Assembly (NCBI GenBank): GCA_029263055.1
Contig: JAJCYG010000065.1
Span: forward strand, 11,458-75,457
Direction of reading: 5' to 3'
Source of the DNA: Actinomycetes bacterium
Lineage (GTDB): Bacteria > Auribacterota > JAJCYG01
DNA length: 64,000 nucleotides
Shown: in pieces, positions 3,363 through 29,395 of the stretch
Numbering within the stretch: position 1 is the first letter of the stretch
Layout of the letters: every line of letters starts with the position of its first letter
Notes under the pieces: model-generated
The model's input: only the letters and a program-made list of their open reading frames with translations
The model's database searches: none
What the model was told of the DNA's origin: nothing
Position numbers and translations under genes: made by a program

Positions 3363-3950
3363 CTACTCGTCCAACCCTAAGATCTTTTTTCCTGATTCAC
3401 TGATCATGCTCGAGTTCCAGGCAGGATCCCAAACCACTTCAACGGTTGCTTTAGCCACGCCAGGAAGGCGAGCAATTTTAGATTCAGCATCACCTGCAAT
3501 GGTGGCGCCCATACCACAACCTTGAGCAGTGAGTGTCATTTTGACATGAATATCATTGTCACCACTGTCTAATTTTTGAACTTCCATGTCATAAATCAAA
3601 CCAAGGTCGACAATGTTTAAAGGAATTTCTGGATCGTAACAAGTCTTGAGTGCGTCCCAAACCCGCTCTTGGCTAAACTCACCTGCTTCAATATCTGAGT
3701 CACCTTGCAAAGCTCCTTCAGGAATCACAGTCCCTTCAGGATAGAGCGCATCCAAATCCTTATCATTAATTCGAGCCAAAGCCCCATAAGAAGGAACTTG
3801 CACAGTAATGTTTCCACCCAAAGTTTGAGTCACCATTGCTTCAGTTCCTTTACGAACTGTCAAAGGATCCCCACTTGGAATCTGAGTAATGGTTGTATCT
3901 CTAAAAAATTGAATGGTATCGCCTGCTTGTAATTCTTTATATGTGCTCAT
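3363..3950 (-). CDS. DUF59 / SufT-like (MIP18 family) Fe-S cluster assembly protein with ~90 aa N-terminal extension
   Basis: The C-terminal half matches the DUF59 pattern: DPEIPLNIVDLGLIY...V.V.MTLT..GCGMG......I..LPGV..V.V..VWDP.W....M...GK..LGL. Confidence 0.55.
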   Translation of the reverse strand: MSTYKELQAGDTIQFFRDTTITQIPSGDPLTVRKGTEAMVTQTLGGNITVQVPSYGALARINDKDLDALYPEGTVIPEGALQGDSDIEAGEFSQERVWDALKTCYDPEIPLNIVDLGLIYDMEVQKLDSGDNDIHVKMTLTAQGCGMGATIAGDAESKIARLPGVAKATVEVVWDPAWNSSMISESGKKILGLDE

Positions 3951-4020
3951 GTTTACTCCTAAAAGGTTTAAAGGTATTAAATCTAAGGTGTCCGATTATA
4001 CCGACTTCCCCCTTCCGCCA

Positions 4021-4086
4021 CAACCCCAAACCCCCCTCCTGTGGATAACCGGGGGTCAGGCTCACTTATCCACAGGTTTGGGGTTG
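4021..4086. promoter_or_regulatory. Imperfect 21-bp palindrome. The arms are 4021-4049 and 4066-4086, and each contains a perfect DnaA-box 9-mer TTATCCACA (minus strand 4040-4048, plus strand 4066-4074). It overlaps the -35 element.
   Basis: Arm 1 is CAACCCCAAACC[CCCCTC]CTGTGGATAA and arm 2 is TTATCCACAGGTTTGGGGTTG. The 17-nt spacer carries a GGGGTCAGGC motif. The element sits in the divergent promoter region between 3950 (minus gene) and 4155 (plus gene). Confidence 0.5.
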
Positions 4087-4112
4087 ATTTTATCGAGGGG
4101 GAGGGGTATAAT
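4084..4112 (+). promoter_or_regulatory. Sigma70-like promoter for the AKR/Cld-like gene: -35 TTGATT (4084-4089), 17-nt spacer, -10 TATAAT (4107-4112)
   Basis: A near-consensus hexamer pair with optimal spacing lies ~43 nt upstream of the ATG at 4155. Confidence 0.5.
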
Positions 4113-4154
4113 TTCTGCTCCTTAATTTTATAAATTTAAAGAAAGAGCTTAGTT

Positions 4155-6038
4155 ATGACAATTGATGCACAAATTCAAGAAGCTTCAAAAGATCAAACCA
4201 TTGTACAAATTGGACCTGCTGTTTTTGGGATGTGGAGTGGGGGACACTTCATGCATTTTGGCGAAGACATCGGAGAAGAGAATTTAAAAGCTCTTGTTCG
4301 TCAAGCTTACCAAAAAGGGATCCGCACTTTTATGACGGCGGATGTTTATGGCAATGGGAAGTCTGATCAAATGTTAGGTGAAGCTCTTTCTGAGTATGAC
4401 CGCAGTTCTTACAAAATTTTAGGCGCAATTGGTCATGATTTTTATACAGGTAGACGAGAAGGGGAAAAAGGGTTTCCTCGATTTACAGACCCGCGTTTGC
4501 GTGATGAATCTGAGTATGAAAATTATATTCGGATGGCAACTCAAAAATCTTTAGAACGTTTAAGGACTGATTATTTTGATGTGTTGTTTTTGCACAACCC
4601 GGATCAAATTGGTTATACCAATAAAAAGATTTGGCAAACATTTGATCAGCTGAAAAAAGAAGGCATTGTCAAGCAAGTTGGGATTGCACCTGGACCGGCA
4701 AATGGTTTTTCTTTAGATTTGATTGGTGCGTTTGAAGATTTTGAATCAAGTATTGATTGGGCCATGATTATTATGAATCCGTTTGAACCATGGCCTGGAA
4801 ATTTTGCTTTAGAACCTGCAAAGAAACATAATGTGAAGTTGTTGATTCGTGTGGTTGATTATGGCGGCTTGTTTCATGAATCAATCAAGCCAGGCGTGCA
4901 ACTTCCTCGAATGGATCACCGAAGCTTTCGTCCTAAAGGATGGATTGAAGCAGGTTGGGAAAAAATAGAGCAGGTTCGTCCTATTGCTGAGAAACATGAC
5001 ATTTCATTGCTTCAGCTCTCTTGTCAATGGAATCGGAGTCAATCTAATGTTGAAGCAGTTGTGCCGACTTTGATTCAAGAAAAAGATCCGAATGCCAAAT
5101 CATTAGAAGCTCAATTAGATGAATTAGTTGGCATTGCTGATTTAAAAACACTTTCTGAAGAAGAAGTTTCGAAGATTTCTGAGATAGGGAATAACAAAGG
5201 ATGCATGGCTCTAAAAGGAGGCTCCCGTCAGTATCAAGGACCGCCTCAAGGAGATCAATGGCACATTTCAGATAAAAATAACGATGTGGCTAAACGTTGG
5301 GGAATTGAGCCTGACCGAGATTTGTTTTATATGGAAGACCCGCGTGACTTAAGAGAAAAAGGAGCGCCTGTTCGAGGCAAACCTCAGTTTCTTGATCGTC
5401 GACTGTTTATTCAGTTCTTGGCTTTTGGCAATTGCCACAACCCTGCCGCAATTATTGATGTGATTAAAGAAAAGAAATGTGAAGCAGTTGTTTACGCCGA
5501 TGCCAATGACCCTAAAGGAATCGGGCTTGTTTTTATGAGTGAAGATCCTGACTTTTTTGTTGGAGAAAAGAACTGTTTGCTCAACCATCACGCTTTTTCT
5601 GAATTAGAAGACAAGCCAGAGTTTACGATGTTTGGCCGTACTTATTCAAGTGGCCGCGAGCCTGATTTAGAAGATTGGGTGCTTCATAAACCACGCAAAA
5701 CCGCTTTTAATCCAGATTGGCCGTGGGCGATTTGGTATCCGCTGCGTCGTAAAGGATCGTTTGAACAACTGACCCCTGCCGAACAAGGAAAAATCTTATT
5801 CGAACATGCTATGATTGGCCGCAACTACGGCAATGCTGATTATGCTCATGACATTCGAATTGCTTGCCATGGCTTAGACCAAAATGACAATGAGTTTGTG
5901 ATTGGTTTAACAGGGCGTGAATTGTTTCCGCTTTCGCACATCATCCAAACCATGCGCAAAACAAAACAGACCTCGGAATATATTGAATCCCTCGGTCCGT
6001 TTTTTGTTGGAAAAGCAATTTACCAATTCCAAAAGTAG
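4155..6038 (+). CDS. Fusion protein. The N-terminal ~330 aa is an aldo/keto reductase (AKR). The C-terminal ~290 aa is a chlorite dismutase/HemQ-like (CDE superfamily) domain.
   Basis: The AKR part shows MTADVYGNGKSDQMLGEAL, LERLRTDYFDVLFLHNPD and a GIAPGP-type region. The C-terminal part shows YAHDIRIACHGLDQNDNEFVIGLTGRELFPLSHIIQTMR, recalling the H...GLDD.DF...E..DL.....L...M pattern of Cld/HemQ family proteins. Confidence 0.55.
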   Translation: MTIDAQIQEASKDQTIVQIGPAVFGMWSGGHFMHFGEDIGEENLKALVRQAYQKGIRTFMTADVYGNGKSDQMLGEALSEYDRSSYKILGAIGHDFYTGRREGEKGFPRFTDPRLRDESEYENYIRMATQKSLERLRTDYFDVLFLHNPDQIGYTNKKIWQTFDQLKKEGIVKQVGIAPGPANGFSLDLIGAFEDFESSIDWAMIIMNPFEPWPGNFALEPAKKHNVKLLIRVVDYGGLFHESIKPGVQLPRMDHRSFRPKGWIEAGWEKIEQVRPIAEKHDISLLQLSCQWNRSQSNVEAVVPTLIQEKDPNAKSLEAQLDELVGIADLKTLSEEEVSKISEIGNNKGCMALKGGSRQYQGPPQGDQWHISDKNNDVAKRWGIEPDRDLFYMEDPRDLREKGAPVRGKPQFLDRRLFIQFLAFGNCHNPAAIIDVIKEKKCEAVVYADANDPKGIGLVFMSEDPDFFVGEKNCLLNHHAFSELEDKPEFTMFGRTYSSGREPDLEDWVLHKPRKTAFNPDWPWAIWYPLRRKGSFEQLTPAEQGKILFEHAMIGRNYGNADYAHDIRIACHGLDQNDNEFVIGLTGRELFPLSHIIQTMRKTKQTSEYIESLGPFFVGKAIYQFQK

Positions 6039-6049
6039 AGCAAAAACAA

Positions 6050-6349
6050 TTAAGCGTTGGCGTAGACTTTGTGTGAAGGTCTGCCGGCTAAGATTTGTTC
6101 TTTTCCCCAGTTGGTGACTGCGGCAAATTCTTCGGATTGAATGAATTTTGAGAACGCTTCTTTTTCTGACCATTCTGAAACAATCAGGTATGAGGTTGCT
6201 TTAGCCACATCTTTATAAAGATGTGATTTTTCATGGCCTTGCATATCTTTCATGACATTTAACACTTTTGTAAACGCATCTTCAAATGCTTGTTCTTTGC
6301 CTGGGATTACTTCGTAGTTCATTCCAATCGTTACCATAATATCCTCCAA
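6050..6349 (-). CDS. Antibiotic biosynthesis monooxygenase (ABM/Dabb) domain protein. The true start may be the ATG at 6337.
   Basis: At ~95 aa it has the ferredoxin-like ABM pattern MVTIGMNYEVIPGKEQAFEDAF...YLIVSEWSEKEAFSKFIQSEEF. IsdG-type heme oxygenases share this fold. Confidence 0.55.
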   Translation of the reverse strand: MEDIMVTIGMNYEVIPGKEQAFEDAFTKVLNVMKDMQGHEKSHLYKDVAKATSYLIVSEWSEKEAFSKFIQSEEFAAVTNWGKEQILAGRPSHKVYANA

Positions 6350-6530
6350 ATTTGCTCAGAGTGTATCAGAAAGCCAAAAATGTTCAAAATGGTATTTTTG
6401 CGTAGAAAGTGAACAAAAATGAGCGTGATTAAAAACGGGCACTTTTATAACAATTTCTAATAGAAGGGGATGGGAAAGTGAGAATTTGGCCTGCTATATG
6501 CAAATAATAGTTATGAAGCCGGAGGGTTGG

Positions 6531-7883
6531 ATGAAGAAGCAAGGAATAGTGATTTTGTTGGTCATTATGTTAGGAGTACCAGGACAGGTTAAGGCGGTTC
6601 AGTCCAACCATTTTAATGATTATTTAGATGTTGCGGCCTCTCGTTTGTCGACTTCTTCTTCAAGTCTTTTTGAGCAAACCCTTCTTGGATTTACTTATTT
6701 AGGACTGGGTGAGTGGGAAAAAGCAGAAGCACAAATCTTGATAGGAAAAGAAGTTGTTGAGAAAAATAAGAACTTGTTAACAAGCTTTAAACTTTGGTTG
6801 GCTCTGCTTTCATTTCAATTTGATTTTTTAACGGAACAAAATAAATACGGTTTGTTTGGCGAAAAACTCTGCTTAGATGTTTGTTCTCTTCCTACTTATA
6901 ATGATTTGCCTGTTATGGGAAAGAGAAAAGATATTTGGAATGTTGATTGGAGTTGTTTTGTTGCATTAGAAGATATTCGTTTTGGAATAGAAGTATTAGA
7001 TGTTGCCACTCAGCTAACTTTAAATTTAAAGAATAAAAAAACGTTTGAAGTAAAAAAACAAAAATTAATTCAAGCACTTCCATTGTTTGAGTCATTTCCT
7101 GAAAATAGTTTTTTTGTTTTTTCTTATTTAGATGATCAGTCTTCTGACATAGAAGATAAGCGCAAAAGCTATTTTTTTAATGTTTCTAATGGGCTTTACT
7201 TTGTGTCTGATCAAAGAAAAATAGCTATGCCTAAGCCTGGAAAAACTAAGAGAACTCTTGCTTACTTTGCTGGTTTAATGAGAGAAGAACAGTCAGAGAG
7301 GGCTATTGCTAAGTATGAAAAAGCTCGCCGATCGATAAATGGATTACGTCCCTTTTCTGTATGGAAAAAAGAAAATCAGCTTAAGATTTATGATCGAAGC
7401 CATCTTGCTTCATTGAATAAAAAAGAAGATTGGTTTTTTCCTGATCGTTTTAAGGATAAATTCTCTGATAAAGGATTAGCAGATATCTGTTTTGATTTTA
7501 TTAAAACATATTCTCATCCATTAAAATTACAGAAAACAGTGGTTGTAAAAGAAGAGTTAAATTCTCTGATTTTGGCAAAAATAGCTAAACGCCATCTTTT
7601 AACAGGAGAGTATAATAAAGCGGAAAGATGGGCTAAAAAATCTGTAGCTACAGATCAAGATCGTGATGCGGTTGCTTCATCATGGTTGATTTTGGGTAAA
7701 ATTTATCGTGATAAAGCGGACCATGCAAAGTCTGATTTTAAATTTGTATTAGCCGATCAATATCAAGAAAAGAGTGAGCATGCTTTTCAGACTGTGGCAC
7801 GCCACTACCCAACAGCCAGTGTGATTGATTCTAAAAGCTCGTTAAAACGAGTGGTTGAGATTATTCAAGGCCTCTACCAGTAA
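6531..7883 (+). CDS. Secreted hypothetical protein (signal peptide), AT-rich
   Basis: The start was moved to MKKQGIVILLVIMLGVPGQVKA, which has a good signal peptide and an SD GGAGGG upstream. The protein is ~450 aa with no recognisable family. Its composition is more AT-rich than the flanking genes. Confidence 0.45.
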   Translation: MKKQGIVILLVIMLGVPGQVKAVQSNHFNDYLDVAASRLSTSSSSLFEQTLLGFTYLGLGEWEKAEAQILIGKEVVEKNKNLLTSFKLWLALLSFQFDFLTEQNKYGLFGEKLCLDVCSLPTYNDLPVMGKRKDIWNVDWSCFVALEDIRFGIEVLDVATQLTLNLKNKKTFEVKKQKLIQALPLFESFPENSFFVFSYLDDQSSDIEDKRKSYFFNVSNGLYFVSDQRKIAMPKPGKTKRTLAYFAGLMREEQSERAIAKYEKARRSINGLRPFSVWKKENQLKIYDRSHLASLNKKEDWFFPDRFKDKFSDKGLADICFDFIKTYSHPLKLQKTVVVKEELNSLILAKIAKRHLLTGEYNKAERWAKKSVATDQDRDAVASSWLILGKIYRDKADHAKSDFKFVLADQYQEKSEHAFQTVARHYPTASVIDSKSSLKRVVEIIQGLYQ

Positions 7884-7927
7884 GTTTCTGTTATACTTCA
7901 GCCTCACCTAAATTATGGAGAATCAAT

Positions 7928-8188
7928 ATGTCAGAGATGGTTCAGAAGATTGAAGCCATTTTAAAAGAAGCGTTGCAGCCTACTTCTATAGAAGTAGAGG
8001 ACCAAAGCTATCTGCACAAAGGGCATGCCGGAGCCATGAAAGGGGGTGGCCATTATAAAGTAGAGGTTATTTCACCTCTTTTTGAGGGCAAATCTCTAGT
8101 GGAGCAGCATCAAATGGTCTACCAAGCCCTTGGGCAGGAAATGAAGGCAGACATCCATGCCTTAGCTCTTAAAACCTCGGTTCGATAA
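7928..8188 (+). CDS. BolA family protein
   Basis: At 86 aa it matches the YLHKGHAG....GGHY.V.V.S..F.G.S.V..H..VY..L pattern of BolA/YrbA. Confidence 0.75.
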   Translation: MSEMVQKIEAILKEALQPTSIEVEDQSYLHKGHAGAMKGGGHYKVEVISPLFEGKSLVEQHQMVYQALGQEMKADIHALALKTSVR

Positions 8189-10378: not shown

Positions 10379-10440
10379 GCAGCTAAAAACAATAGCTTCA
10401 ACGTATATAAAGATACGCATCAGCTATTGTTTTTAGCTGC
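10379..10440. repeat. 19-bp perfect inverted repeat (GCAGCTAAAAACAATAGCT / AGCTATTGTTTTTAGCTGC) with a 24-nt loop, between rho and rpmE
   Basis: Read directly from the sequence at 10379-10397 and 10422-10440. No T-tract follows it. Confidence 0.7.
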
Positions 10441-12792: not shown

Positions 12793-14061
12793 ATGGATAA
12801 AATCGTACTTGAAGGTGGAACTCAATTAAGAGGTGAAGTGGAACTAAGTGGCGCAAAAAATGCGGCGCTCCCTATTTTGTCTGCCACGATCTTATCTGAT
12901 TCAACCTCTGTGATTCACCGCGTTCCAAATCTTCAAGATATTCGTACCATGGTGACGATTTTAGAATCGTTAGGGGCTGTGGTTGATTGGGATAAGGATC
13001 AAGGGACGATTCAAGTTGATCCTAAAAATATTAATAAAGAAGAAGCACCATATGAGCTGGTTAAAAAGATGCGGGCTTCAATCTGTTTTTTAGGCCCTTT
13101 AATTGGTCGGCTTGGTAAAGCACGTGTTTCTATGCCTGGTGGATGTGTGATTGGACCTCGACCTGTTGATTTGCATTTAAAAGGATTGGAATGTTTGAAT
13201 GTTAAAATCAGTATTGAACAAGGTTATATTTGTGCCGAGACTGAAGAGTTGCGTGGGAATGAAATCTTTTTAGGCGGCCGTTTTGGTTCTTCAGTGTTGG
13301 CAACAGCCAATGTGATGATGGCTGCTGTTCGAGCTAAAGGCCTTACTATTATTGAAAGTGCAGCGTGTGAACCTGAAATTGAAAACCTGGCTCATTTTTT
13401 AATGAAGATGGGAGCTGACATTGAAGGAGCGGGCACACATGTGATTAAAATTCGTGGAGTAGATTCATTGCACGGTGCAGAGCATACTGTGATTCCTGAT
13501 CGGATTGAAGCAGGAACCTTTATGATTGCTGCAGCCATGACGCGTGGGGATGTGTTGATCAAAGGGGTCGACATGGCCATGCTTCACGGTGTGAATGACA
13601 AATTGGCTCAAGCAGGTGTGAAGCTAGAACGAAAAGATGGGAATGTGCGTGTCACGGTTCCGAATGATCTTTCCGTGGTTGATGTGATTACGCTTCCATA
13701 CCCAGGTTTTCCAACAGATTTGCAAGCGCAGATGATGGGGCTAATGAGTGTGACCAATGGTATTAGTGTGATCACAGAAAAAATTTATCCCGAGCGGTTT
13801 ATGCATGTGGCAGAACTCAACCGTATGGCAGCCAGTATTTCTTTAGAAGGGCAGTCTGCCATTGTTAAAGGGGTGAAGCATTTAAATGGTGCGCCTGTGA
13901 TGGCCTCTGATTTACGTGCCAGTGCCGCATTAGTTTTAGCTGGTCTTGTGGCTGATGGATCTACTGAAGTACACCGTGTTTATCACATTGATCGTGGCTA
14001 TGAAAATATAGAAGAAAAATTATCCAAATTAGGCGCAAAAATCCAACGCGTAAAAGAATAG
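12793..14061 (+). CDS. murA: UDP-N-acetylglucosamine 1-carboxyvinyltransferase
   Basis: It shows the EPT fold, the N-terminus LEGGTQLRGEVELSGAKNAALPIL, and the active-site loop with Cys (PGGCVIGPRPVD). Confidence 0.95.
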   Translation: MDKIVLEGGTQLRGEVELSGAKNAALPILSATILSDSTSVIHRVPNLQDIRTMVTILESLGAVVDWDKDQGTIQVDPKNINKEEAPYELVKKMRASICFLGPLIGRLGKARVSMPGGCVIGPRPVDLHLKGLECLNVKISIEQGYICAETEELRGNEIFLGGRFGSSVLATANVMMAAVRAKGLTIIESAACEPEIENLAHFLMKMGADIEGAGTHVIKIRGVDSLHGAEHTVIPDRIEAGTFMIAAAMTRGDVLIKGVDMAMLHGVNDKLAQAGVKLERKDGNVRVTVPNDLSVVDVITLPYPGFPTDLQAQMMGLMSVTNGISVITEKIYPERFMHVAELNRMAASISLEGQSAIVKGVKHLNGAPVMASDLRASAALVLAGLVADGSTEVHRVYHIDRGYENIEEKLSKLGAKIQRVKE

Positions 14062-14092
14062 GGGTCTGGCGCCGCAGGTGCCTGACCCCGGA
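14061..14092. repeat. GC-rich imperfect hairpin immediately after the murA stop. It contains the 15-mer GGTGCCTGACCCCGG, which also occurs at 29360-29374.
   Basis: GGGGTCTGGCGCCGCAGGTGCCTGACCCCGG forms an imperfect 13-bp stem. No T-tract follows. Confidence 0.5.
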
Positions 14093-18762: not shown

Positions 18763-18774
18763 TCAGCAATACTC

Positions 18775-19004
18775 CGTGTTAAAGTGTGCCTCAAAGGGCC
18801 GTTCCATAAGTGACTTGCCGCCCGGCAACTCACTTACTCCACTCATATTCGCAGACACACCCAGATAAAATTGTCTTCTTAGGCAGGGTCTCCCTCCGGC
18901 TCCGCTAACGCTACGCCTACACGAGCCCCTGTCGGAAGCCAACTTTATCCGGGCCCCTGTCTACTCAGATGCCCTTTGATGCACACTTTAACACTGCGTT
19001 TGTT
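18775..19004. repeat. GC-rich ~230-bp structured element (copy L). It is closed by a 24-bp terminal stem (18775-18798 pairs with 18981-19004) and is ~85% identical to the reverse complement of copy R.
   Basis: The terminal stem GTGTTAAAGTGTGCCTCAAAGGGC pairs with GCCCTTTGATGCACACTTTAACAC. The internal sequence aligns to the reverse complement of 19845-20030. Confidence 0.75.
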
Positions 19005-19014
19005 GGTGTTTATT

Positions 19015-19716
19015 TTAAGGGTGGGGTGAAAGAATGACTTCCTTAGTTTTTTTGCTGATTCCGGACGTATCTTCTATTTTATTATAGATAATAGCGAAAA
19101 TATTTTTGCAGTGATCAGTGATTTCTTTTTTATTACACTTTGTTCTATTTAGTTTTATTTCTTCATTTCTTATTAATTCAGGTAGGTCTGGATCTTCTAC
19201 AAGTGTTTTATTATGAGTAATGCTTAAAAAATAATAATTTTTGTATCGAGTTGATATTCCATAAACTGGATCATTCCAATCAAATGTCCTTGATTCAAAT
19301 TGTAATGGTCTACTTGTTGTGATTCCTATTTTGTTTGTTATTTCAAAAAAAACGGGTTTTTCTTTTTCAAAATTTCCAACGTAAAAGAATGTTGGATCTT
19401 TGGGTGTGTAACCGCATTGTCTAAAGTTTTTCTCTAAATCTGAAGTTAACTCATCTCTAATGCTGTTTATTAAGTAAGCTGGATTGTCTATGTAGTGGAA
19501 TTTTTTATAATAGTCTTTATACCAGTCCTGTAGGTTTTGTTCGCTTAATGAGATACCAGCGAAACCTACTAGTGCGAAGTTATTGAAATTATATACTTTT
19601 ATTTGATTGTCTTGATATCTGCTTGGACAATCTTCAGGATGCTTTATATGGGTTAATCTTTTATCGCCTACGAAAACAATATGGTTTTGAATATAAGCTC
19701 CTAGAATTAAAGTCAT
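19015..19716 (-). CDS. Hypothetical protein (233 aa), AT-rich orphan ORF flanked by the inverted GC-rich elements
   Basis: It is a long ORF with a strong AT bias relative to its neighbours and belongs to no recognisable family. Its N-terminus MTLILGAYIQNHIVFVGDKRLT is faintly reminiscent of N-terminal-Thr (Ntn, HslV/proteasome-beta-like) hydrolases. Confidence 0.5.
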   Translation of the reverse strand: MTLILGAYIQNHIVFVGDKRLTHIKHPEDCPSRYQDNQIKVYNFNNFALVGFAGISLSEQNLQDWYKDYYKKFHYIDNPAYLINSIRDELTSDLEKNFRQCGYTPKDPTFFYVGNFEKEKPVFFEITNKIGITTSRPLQFESRTFDWNDPVYGISTRYKNYYFLSITHNKTLVEDPDLPELIRNEEIKLNRTKCNKKEITDHCKNIFAIIYNKIEDTSGISKKTKEVILSPHP

Positions 19717-19832
19717 TTGTTTCTCTTTATAAATAATTATACATGAGTAAAAGGCTCTTTATATAAAGGGTTTATAACAATGTTTTATAGTTGAATGGGG
19801 TGTGGTACAATTTGGGGCTTTAGCGGAGTTCG

Positions 19833-20045
19833 GGAGTCTTTGTGAAAAGGCACCGGAGCAGACAGGGGCCCAGGGAAAGTTGACTTCAGACAGGGGCTCG
19901 TGGAGGCGGAGCGTTAGCGAAGCCGGAAGGAGACCCTGCCTAAGAAGGCAACTTTTTCTGGGTGTGGCTGCGATGATGAGTGAGTCTACCGAGTTGCCGG
20001 GCGGCAAGTCGGTTAGGGAACGTCGTTTTCACAAAGACTCCTGAA
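19833..20045. repeat. GC-rich ~213-bp structured element (copy R), in inverted orientation relative to copy L. It is closed by a 15-17 bp perfect terminal stem (19833-19849 pairs with 20029-20045).
   Basis: GAGTCTTTGTGAAAA pairs with TTTTCACAAAGACTC. The internal sequence is ~85% identical to the reverse complement of copy L. Confidence 0.75.
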
Positions 20046-20064
20046 CGGAGCGTGGACAACTTAT

Positions 20065-28293: not shown

Positions 28294-29355
28294 ATGCAAA
28301 TCGATCAATACCTTCCAGGGGTTGCTCCTGGAGATGCGGTCACAACCCATGCTTTAGAAATTCAAAAGACACTTCAATCATTTGGAGTCACCTCTAATCT
28401 TTATGCACCCAAGCAGCATGTTGAGCCTGCTTCAGAACATCTCTGCCGTGATTACCGTGAAGCAACTAAAAATGGGGCGGCTGATTCCACGCACCTTTAC
28501 CACTTTTCAATTGGTTCTGAGCTTTCTGAATTTGTTCCTGGTTTAAAAGGGAAGAAAGTAATGATCTATCATAATATTACACCGCACACCTTCTTCTTAA
28601 AGTTTAACAATGAAAAAGCTTTAGCTGCCTATGTTGGGCGTGAACAACTGGAAACATTAGCTAATAAATTTGATTTAGCTTTAGGCGATTCTGAATACAA
28701 CCGAAAAGAATTAGAAGCCGCTGGTTTTAAACAAACAGGAGTATTGCCGCTTTTTATTGATGCCCATGATTGGGATTCACCGGGTGAAGACTCTGTTCCT
28801 TTAGATGATGGCTTTGTGAACTTTTTGTTTGTGGGGCGTTTTGTGCCAAACAAAAAATTCGAAGATGTGATTAAAACTTTTTATACGTATCAAAAAACAA
28901 TTGAACCTCGATCCCGTCTTTATTTGGTAGGACCTACTGATAGTTTTGATAAGTACAAAGTTTATCTTCAATGTTTAGTGGAAACATTAGGGGTTGAAAA
29001 TGTCATTTTTACAGGACGCATTCCTACAGAAGAACGGAACCGTCTTTATAAAGAAGCTGATGTTTTTTTGTGCATGAGTGAGCATGAAGGGTTTTGCATG
29101 CCTCTTTTAGAAGCGATGCACTTTGGGGCGCCGGTTGTGGCCTATGACGCGGCAGCAGTTCCCGAAACCATGGGAGGAGCTGGGGTCTTAGTCAAAGAAA
29201 AGAATTTTCCTCAAATCGCAGAGATGATTCATCAGATTGTGTTGAACAAAGAATTGCGCCAACAAATTGTTGAAGGCCAGCGAAAACGCTTAAAAGATTT
29301 TGATCGTTCTAAGGTTCAGCAGCAGTTAAAAGACTATTTAGGACTAAAACGTTGA
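28294..29355 (+). CDS. Glycosyltransferase family 4-like (paralog of 29396-30469)
   Basis: FVGRFVPNKKFEDVI and EGFCMPLLEAMHFGAPVVAYD form an EX7E-type motif. It is highly similar to the next gene. Confidence 0.6.
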   Translation: MQIDQYLPGVAPGDAVTTHALEIQKTLQSFGVTSNLYAPKQHVEPASEHLCRDYREATKNGAADSTHLYHFSIGSELSEFVPGLKGKKVMIYHNITPHTFFLKFNNEKALAAYVGREQLETLANKFDLALGDSEYNRKELEAAGFKQTGVLPLFIDAHDWDSPGEDSVPLDDGFVNFLFVGRFVPNKKFEDVIKTFYTYQKTIEPRSRLYLVGPTDSFDKYKVYLQCLVETLGVENVIFTGRIPTEERNRLYKEADVFLCMSEHEGFCMPLLEAMHFGAPVVAYDAAAVPETMGGAGVLVKEKNFPQIAEMIHQIVLNKELRQQIVEGQRKRLKDFDRSKVQQQLKDYLGLKR

Positions 29356-29384
29356 CATCGGTGCCTGACCCCGGCGTCAACGTT
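29348..29384. repeat. Hairpin (AACGTTGACATCGG ... CCGGCGTCAACGTT) overlapping the GT4 stop codon. It contains the 15-mer GGTGCCTGACCCCGG (29360-29374).
   Basis: The 15-mer is identical to that at 14077-14091. A related GCCTGACCCCCGG motif occurs on the opposite strand at 4049-4062. Confidence 0.5.
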
Positions 29385-29395
29385 GAAAAGAGAGT

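Follow-up and report, generated by a model that had tools for sequence, protein, structure and literature searches.

Between two back-to-back promoters in a 64,000-nucleotide stretch of an Actinomycetes bacterium contig (JAJCYG010000065.1, assembly GCA_029263055.1; the whole stretch is referred to as the window, and positions are given within it) lies a GC-rich palindrome whose arms hold two perfect consensus DnaA boxes in inverted orientation. It separates sufT from a gene encoding an aldo-keto reductase (AKR) fused to a chlorite-dismutase-like (Cld-like) domain. The explanation that we favour, tentatively, is that the core of the palindrome (~4024-4083) may be a lineage-specific, GC-rich insertion of the repetitive extragenic palindrome (REP) or miniature inverted-repeat transposable element (MITE) type, placed in the gap between ancestral promoters, such that the DnaA boxes would be the stem of a hairpin. 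This reading is based on the absence of the palindrome in relatives, the plasticity of the gap in which it lies, a centre motif that it shares with a small insertion elsewhere in the window, its GC richness, and the existence of a similar repeat family associated with REP-associated tyrosine transposases (RAYTs). Judged from these comparisons, the palindrome is probably a recent, selfish addition beside ancestral promoters. Paired perfect DnaA boxes next to a good promoter mimic an operator, and the case is a caution for annotation, as such a site should not be labelled a DnaA-regulated promoter.

Anatomy of the Palindrome

The two boxes and the spacing reported in the initial annotation were confirmed: TGTGGATAA and TTATCCACA face each other across a 17-bp spacer (Table 1), and they are the only exact copies of the DnaA-box 9-mer in the 64 kb, where 0.63 would be expected and where two or more occurred in 13 of 100 shuffles. 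The boxes are embedded in two nested sets of perfect arms, an inner 39-nt unit and a pair of outer arms (CAACCCCAAACC and GGTTTGGGGTTG) that are complementary at 12 of 12 positions. The window as a whole is rich in inverted repeats, with 28 perfect inverted 10-mers separated by at most 50 bp versus 4.55 ± 2.65 in block shuffles, and the palindrome is the only locus with two nested perfect arms of at least 10 bp. Seven nucleotides in the left arm only, CCCCTCC, interrupt the symmetry and have the appearance of a slipped partial copy of the neighbouring C-rich arm. Treated as single-stranded DNA, the region is predicted to fold at -29.4 kcal/mol (z = -4.7; equalled by 0 of 200 shuffles), and its GC content is 63%, compared with roughly 34-37% in the ordinary intergenic DNA of the window.

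The palindrome exactly fills the gap between the two promoters, each outer arm ending in three bases of one -35 box. On the right these bases are the TTG of the TTGATT-17-TATAAT promoter that had been annotated initially together with its overlap by the arm, and both observations hold, the promoter agreeing with the consensus at 10 of 12 positions. On the left, the outer arm overlaps by 3 nt the -35 box of a promoter that had not been noted before and that serves sufT; its TTGTGG hexamer matches only three of six consensus positions and is for that reason omitted by the promoter scan; it was read from the sequences of the window and the relatives. With transcription starts assumed near 4119 (+) and 3989 (-), the centres of the boxes fall at about -49 and -75 from the rightward start and at about -55 and -81 from the leftward start, which is upstream of both core promoters. 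The centres of the half-sites are 26 bp, or 2.5 helical turns, apart, on opposite faces of the helix.

Because the palindrome lies upstream of both promoters, it is not expected to be transcribed or to act as RNA, and the suggestion that the divergent genes have it in common as a structured element is accordingly unlikely at the level of RNA. Rfam covariance models gave nothing at gathering score in the window and only chance-level matches (E ≥5) in 3850-4250; an RNA element was rejected on the grounds of this result and of the position of the site. An intrinsic terminator was likewise rejected, as none is called here by the terminator scan, the site is upstream of both flanking genes, and the right arm is followed only by ATTTTAT. 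The exact 21-mer of the right arm had no match in JGI metagenomes.

Beyond the perfect arms, a weaker mirror symmetry reaches outwards to 3967 and 4140. It is carried by the leaders, whose mirror score of 22 (12.2 ± 2.4 in shuffles) was matched by 2 of 1000 shuffles; the symmetry of the promoter spacers is not significant (155 of 1000 shuffles). The 5′ leaders at 3951-3994 and 4113-4154 are mirror-similar (CCTTAGATTTAATACCTTTAAA versus CCTTA-ATTTTATAAATTTAAA). That the whole intergenic region is a recent inverted duplication of one promoter and leader was considered and rejected, since the promoter spacers are not significantly mirrored and the rightward promoter is closer to an orthologue in L092 than to its leftward counterpart (below).

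Comparison with Relatives

Conservation upstream of orthologues had been set beforehand as a test of the operator reading. The loci of relatives were retrieved by exact-protein look-ups of homologues, and five of them are informative (L082, L084, L085, L090 and L092; SufT or fusion proteins 66-80% identical). All five keep the divergent sufT/AKR-Cld gene pair and both promoters. The palindrome is absent from all of them, as is any DnaA box of up to two mismatches that aligns with it, and the five orthologous gaps are free of boxes at a tolerance of one mismatch. By the initial annotation, this is a result that would refute an operator, although the relatives compared are rather distant. The TTGATT-17-TATAAT promoter recurs with identical hexamers and spacing at the orthologous place in L084, and related rightward promoters are found in L082, L090 and L092, the features common to the fusion-gene promoters being TTG(T/A)TTTT, a purine-rich spacer and TATAAT. 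The orthologous sufT promoter of the relatives reads GGTTGTNC...GGGGAAGCCGATATAAT, with a common core of GGTTGT...GGGGAAGCCGATATAAT, and the L092 version is called by the promoter scan as TTGTCC-17-TATAAT. These common features indicate that the two promoters of the window are orthologous to those of the relatives. In addition, the rightward promoter matches its L092 orthologue at 18 of 29 positions versus 15 of 29 for the window's own leftward promoter (hand count), which argues that both promoters are ancestral. By this comparison, both promoters are older than the palindrome, which is confined to the lineage of the window. Of the two leaders, that of sufT is similar to its L084 counterpart, and the rightward one is ~29 nt longer than in L092 and L082.

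From one -35 box to the other, L092 has 20 bp, L084 and L085 both have 34 bp, and the window has 60 bp. In L082 the gap consists of ~48 bp plus an inserted 233-bp palindromic element with 59-nt inverted arms, and in L090 (from DRR538838; 8478-10000) it holds ~1.4 kb with a BrnT-like toxin, a CopG/HicB-like antitoxin, an HTH_3 protein and an 87-aa open reading frame (ORF). The L090 stretch is another independent insertion at the same place, and the gap between the two promoters is, by these sequences, an insertion hot spot in the lineage. As a recurrent landing site for very different insertions, it offers a natural experiment on how far a promoter pair tolerates them.

A separate, unrelated palindrome occurs in L085 (6286-6347), where a hairpin with 26-nt arms 3′ of a 345-aa gene has one exact TGTGGATAA in its loop region, indicating that a DnaA-box 9-mer within a hairpin also arises by chance in this lineage.

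The Centre Motif and Related Hairpins in the Window

The initial annotation had remarked that a motif of the spacer recurs after murA and between the tandem GT4 genes. This proved to be correct, and the shared stretch is longer than had been noted. The 10-mer GGGGTCAGGC (4052-4061) is found again, exactly, at 14080-14089, which is 3′ of the MurA-family gene, and at 29363-29372, which is between two group-1/GT4 glycosyltransferase genes, and an inverted copy with one mismatch lies at 14061-14070. An exact 15-mer, GGTGCCTGACCCCGG, is present at 14077 and 29360 and is common to the hairpins at 14061-14092 and 29356-29385, and the palindrome centre has the variant GTGAGCCTGACCCCCGG of it. Written as GCCTGACCCC(C)GG, the motif is common to the palindrome spacer and both of these small GC-rich hairpins. 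Repeated 13-mers of high GC content are very few in the window, and GGTGCCTGACCCCGG is one of them, along with the unrelated W1/W2 repeats described below. This recurrence points to a repeat-element rather than a regulatory origin of the spacer.

The hairpin between murA and ffh lies within a 38-bp insertion relative to L088 and L085, whose murA and ffh are 1-2 bp apart; the insertion also provides GGAG ahead of ffh. At 29350-29385, an unrelated 9-bp stem encloses the motif in its loop, in the way that the DnaA-box arms enclose it at 4049-4065, and the left arm of the 9-bp stem shares bases with the stop codon of the preceding glycosyltransferase gene. The GC content of the window is 39.5%, and all five of its GC-rich intergenic stretches have repeats or palindromes, which is the signature of small inserted repeat elements. 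The sequence GGGGTCTGGCGC at 14061 resembles what we take to be a Tn3-type inverted-repeat end, GGGGTCTGACGC; the hairpins are far shorter than the 38-bp Tn3 repeat, and the likeness serves as a lead only.

A Hairpin Family That Flanks RAYT-Like Genes

A metagenome scan with TGTGGATAA-N17-TTATCCACA gave at least 132 matches in at least 120 loci. One class consists of oriC/dnaA regions with many boxes, and among the matches listed DnaA is encoded next to the match in 15 loci. The other class is a hairpin, (A)CC-TGTGGATAA-N-CGACTTGCGAAGTCG-N-TTATCCACA-GG(T), which occurs in at least 35 loci (34-51% GC) with up to 5 copies per 2.5 kb and whose centre reads CGACTT(GCG/CGC)AAGTCG. In seven loci among the matches listed, such hairpins tightly flank a gene for a 221-244-aa PF01797 Y1_Tnp protein with an HYH motif, for which the best NCBIfam match is 'REP-associated tyrosine transposase', below the cut-off of that model. 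Hairpins on both sides of a Y1_Tnp gene are the architecture of REPs with their RAYT. Across the 138 kb of loci with this family, all 47 exact copies and a single variant that differs in its centre have a spacing of 17, and 28 of the 47 have the CC/GG extension. The inner unit of the window palindrome (4038-4076) has the arms, the CC/GG extension and the 17-bp spacing of this family.

The RAYT-like gene is often found beside an NTP_transferase gene and a winged-helix gene, and these recurrent neighbours give the locus a vertically inherited look. The sources of the family are groundwater (Hainich) and other metagenomes. It is a by-product of the scan that a REP-type family with the DnaA-box consensus as its stem flanks RAYT-like genes, and a literature search for five sequence variants of the repeat found no paper. 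If DnaA binds the repeats of this family in vivo, dozens of copies in a genome would make a sizeable DnaA sink.

The family bears, too, on a question raised in the literature: which sequences are recognised by the DnaA-like DNA-binding domains that some Y1 transposases have. TIRYT genes, which are RAYT-like, have terminal inverted repeats on either side; these repeats have GGGGWSAS in common and occur as singles, dimers or clusters (Di Nocera 2013, PMC3733652). Most of the proteins in question (subclass 2.1) have a C-terminal domain like domain IV of DnaA, and the known repeats are reported not to resemble DnaA boxes (Quentin 2018, PMC6006769). A DnaA-domain-IV-like C-terminus was looked for in the RAYT-like proteins that flank the hairpins, and the candidate was rejected on three counts: Pfam at E up to 10 gave Y1_Tnp only, a PDB profile search gave IS200-type transposases only, and hhalign against a DnaA domain IV alignment (8 metagenome DnaA proteins) gave a probability of 0.08. 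It would be a long shot that hairpin repeats of the REP/TIR type with a perfect DnaA-box stem, meaning the window palindrome and the RAYT-flanking family together, are selfish repeats and high-affinity DnaA sites at once. Were this true, such repeats could act by titration of DnaA or link the activity of Y1 transposases to the replication machinery, and they might be the missing targets of the DnaA-domain-IV-like C-termini in subclass 2.1 (Quentin 2018).

The Insertion Reading and Its Precedents

In the sequence of events that we envision, a palindromic element would have been inserted between the -35 boxes of the ancestral sufT and AKR-Cld promoters, and it would have been placed or maintained there by hairpin-directed single-strand DNA transposition of the RAYT/TIRYT type or by a related form of repeat spreading. 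The two consensus DnaA boxes would then merely be the stem of the inserted hairpin. Several consequences are likely at this locus: compared with L084 and L085, the distance between the promoters is greater by 26 bp (2.5 helical turns); both -35 boxes have G/C-rich upstream flanks; and a cruciform could extrude in negatively supercoiled DNA between the divergent promoters. A conserved DnaA would be expected at both high-affinity sites, and any effect on transcription would be a by-product and not the reason for the sequence. By its boxes the palindrome may well bind DnaA; any regulatory role is hypothetical.

The closest precedents are the REP elements that together with a RAYT form 'REPtrons' (Nunvar 2010, PMC2817692; Bertels & Rainey 2011, PMC3116915). 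Like these, the palindrome is short, extragenic, hairpin-forming, GC-rich compared with the genome and lineage-specific, and its intergenic 39-nt unit with 11-bp perfect arms (z of -4.7 for the DNA fold) agrees with the imperfect palindromes of 20-40 nt that are described for them. It differs from them in that a single copy is seen in 64 kb (the window has 3 occurrences of the centre motif), in that identity does not extend over the whole hairpin, the centre being unrelated to the family's CGACTTGCGAAGTCG and having no GTAG/CGTC tag, and in that no RAYT was found in the window or the relatives' loci. Its position between divergent promoters is also unusual, as REPs usually lie 3′ of genes. With the TIRYT repeats the palindrome shares GGGGWSAS, to which GGGGTCAG at 4052-4059 conforms, as does its reverse complement in the two other hairpins (at 14082 and 29365), and the 14061-14089 copy is an inverted dimer, an arrangement described for TIRYT repeats. 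It differs in that no TIRYT gene was found in the window and in that the published repeats are reported to be unlike DnaA boxes. A GGGGWSAS motif between two DnaA boxes is suggestive in view of the DnaA-like C-terminus of subclass 2.1 proteins; the link is weakened by the looseness of the motif and by RAYT-like proteins without a DnaA-like domain.

Another precedent is offered by the Correia elements of Neisseria, which are promoter-proximal MITEs. They too are small palindromic insertions in promoter regions whose ends contribute to or abut promoter hexamers, but the palindrome of the window is without their family consensus, TA duplication and IHF site.

A number of observations weigh against an insertion of this kind. 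No target-site duplication can be read at the palindrome, no copy of the DnaA-arm palindrome is present in ~85 kb of the relatives' DNA, and tblastn found no Y1/HUH gene in the window or in the relatives' loci. A seemingly related copy at the 5′ end of L084 (GCCTGACCCCG ... GGGGATAACCGGG ... AGGTTTGG) was rejected, being suggestive by eye and not significant given the search space. The window centre agrees with the family centre at 6 of 17 positions (hand count), and the match of arms and spacing was partly built into the search pattern, so that what is independent is the CC/GG extension and the existence of a family at exactly N17. GGGGWSAS is loose enough to have 10 matches in the window versus 6.2 ± 2.3 in shuffles. 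Lastly, the relatives are only 66-80% identical in protein, and a species-specific site, or turnover of a genuine operator, may underlie the difference between them and the window.

Alternative Explanations

The initial annotation had proposed an operator for DnaA or another dimeric regulator, and a version restricted to this species is unlikely but deserves serious weighing: DnaA, or a different regulator that recognises inverted 11-bp half-sites, would co-regulate both promoters and might, for example, couple Fe-S/haem genes to the replication cycle. The boxes are two perfect consensus 9-mers, each with a chance of ~1 in 10,000 per given 21-bp arm (our own estimate from 4^9), although two boxes that arose as the arms of one palindrome would count as a single independent occurrence. 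Single consensus boxes are bound with high affinity by DnaA in E. coli, the site is exactly symmetrical about two mirrored promoters, and the leaders have a motif in common, as might suit co-regulated genes. However, the five relatives that keep both promoters lack the palindrome, the boxes at ~ -49/-75 and -55/-81 are off the core promoters, and half-site centres 26 bp apart on opposite helix faces are unusual for a simple dimer. Moreover, there is no third box, no adjacent regulator gene and, at a tolerance of one mismatch, no other box within 1.2 kb (the next one is at 5285). DnaA is known to regulate promoters such as those of dnaA, nrdAB and mioC in E. coli and of sda and ywlC in B. subtilis, and consensus boxes near sigma-70-type promoters are common to these and to the window; in the window, by contrast, the boxes are upstream of both -35 elements and not over a promoter, and they are not conserved in orthologues. 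Overall, the proposal of an operator is unsupported, and the comparison with relatives disfavours it.

Rather doubtful, too, is a neutral palindrome of local origin, in which template switching or quasi-palindrome correction between the inverted -35 regions (CAACC...GGTTG) would have lengthened a short inverted repeat without the involvement of a mobile element or of any function. The outer arms do end in the two ancestral -35 boxes, which are mutually inverted in all relatives (ACAACC ... GTTG); the arms are perfect where the remaining mirror symmetry is weak, as the promoter spacers illustrate; and the 7 extra nt of the left arm, a slipped copy, hint at slippage during replication. Such an origin leaves unexplained why the centre motif is shared with two other GC-rich hairpins and why arms and spacing coincide with those of a RAYT-associated repeat, and a GC content of 63% is unlike the local sequence.

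It is extremely improbable that the palindrome titrates or reactivates DnaA, as datA and DARS do, or belongs to a replication origin, and these readings were rejected on anatomy: opposed DnaA boxes in an intergenic promoter region recall the DARS1/DARS2 core of E. coli, and many metagenome matches to the pattern are true oriC/dnaA regions, but in DARS1/2 boxes I and II are 5 bp apart and box III is needed (PMC6868365), whereas the window has a 17-bp spacer, no box III, no conservation in relatives, no demonstrated link to replication control, no dnaA, dnaN, box cluster or AT-rich unwinding element by the boxes, and no strand switch, the genes on either side having mostly the same direction.

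Flanking Genes and Other Structured Elements

The leftward gene (3363-3950) encodes a DUF59/FeS_assembly_P domain, and its homologues are named SufT in their sources; the closest named matches are from Verrucomicrobiota/Opitutaceae at ~53-54%. The rightward gene (4155-6038) encodes the 627-aa AKR-Cld-like fusion, a protein that is widespread at 50-60% identity in Planctomycetota, Verrucomicrobiota, Latescibacterota and Omnitrophota and whose closest match in the GTDB species set has 55% identity. The neighbourhood (3363-8188) is conserved, with syntenic loci in L082, L085 and L088, and has an iron/haem flavour; it comprises SufT, the fusion protein, an ABM monooxygenase on the opposite strand, a ~460-aa protein without a Pfam match, and BolA.

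Table 1. Positions of the palindrome, the promoters, and related or comparable elements (window coordinates unless a relative or metagenome locus is named).
Feature	Position	Strand	Basis or remark
Left consensus DnaA-box 9-mer (TTATCCACA on the - strand, reads TGTGGATAA on the + strand)	4040-4048	-	sequence
Right consensus DnaA-box 9-mer TTATCCACA	4066-4074	+	sequence
Inner hairpin unit CCTGTGGATAA-N17-TTATCCACAGG, 39 nt, perfect 11-bp arms, intergenic	4038-4076		inverted-repeat search
Left outer arm CAACCCCAAACC; first 3 nt are part of the leftward sufT promoter -35	4021-4032		inverted-repeat search
Right outer arm GGTTTGGGGTTG; last 3 nt are the TTG of the rightward promoter -35	4075-4086		inverted-repeat search
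7-nt asymmetry CCCCTCC, left arm only, between arm segments	4033-4039		sequence
Centre, non-palindromic 17 bp, CCGGGGGTCAGGCTCAC	4049-4065	-	reverse complement holds GCCTGACCCCCGG, a variant of the 15-mer GGTGCCTGACCCCGG
Outermost reach of the weaker mirror symmetry: each side has GGTATAAT, and the leaders have similar segments, CCTTA.ATTT.ATA..TTTAAA	3967-4140		
Rightward sigma-70-type promoter TTGATT (4084-4089)-17-TATAAT (4107-4112), for the AKR/Cld-like fusion gene	4084-4112	+	10/12 consensus positions
Leftward sufT promoter TTGTGG-17-TATAAT	3996-4023	-	-10 is the reverse complement of 3996-4001, -35 that of 4018-4023
GCCTGACCCCGG, motif used to name the related small GC-rich hairpins of the window			
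Hairpin GGGGTCTGGC-N9-GCCTGACCCC(GG), motif and inverted copy, between murA and ffh	14061-14092	+	
Hairpin AACGTTGAC-atcGGTGCCTGACCCCGGc-GTCAACGTT, between two glycosyltransferase genes	29350-29385	+	
Structured element W2 (within 18763-20064)	~18783-18994	-	nhmmer
Structured element W1 (within 18763-20064)	19828-20045	+	nhmmer
Structured-element copies in L082	5131-5363, 9449-9669, 6-128		nhmmer
RAYT-like loci in metagenomes	L127 3785-4568; L096 2621-3404; L157 1590-2341; L208 236-1019		also L137, L167, L193

One of the insertions in the promoter gap belongs to a second kind of repeat. A structured element of ~160-220 nt has a conserved core and, in each copy, wholly different closing inverted arms (14, 21, 53 and 59 nt). 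An nhmmer search over the window and the relatives' DNA examined found exactly five copies, two in the window (W1 and W2) and three in L082, one of the latter being in the same promoter gap as the palindrome of the window. RNAalifold on the cores gave 40 pairs, compensatory double changes are seen in 15 of these, and the element has no Rfam match. The two window copies are inverted relative to one another and flank a 233-aa ORF (19015-19716, -). The entire 1.3-kb stretch with both copies is an insertion, because the genes for NadA and an aminotransferase are 41 bp apart in L087/L088. The 233-aa ORF had no Pfam, NCBIfam or PADLOC match and, among 1.84 billion representative proteins, matched nothing but itself; either it is an orphan gene that came with the insertion, or it is no gene at all.

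The source lineage is sparsely sampled. For Ffh, only five relatives at 73-83% identity were found among 5.8 billion proteins, followed by matches of at most 61% across several phyla. The sequence of the window is also present in Logan assemblies of SRR15505515. An inverted repeat at 10379-10440, with 28-nt arms that are 86% complementary and a 6-nt loop, lies ~50 bp 3′ of rho and is probably a terminator.

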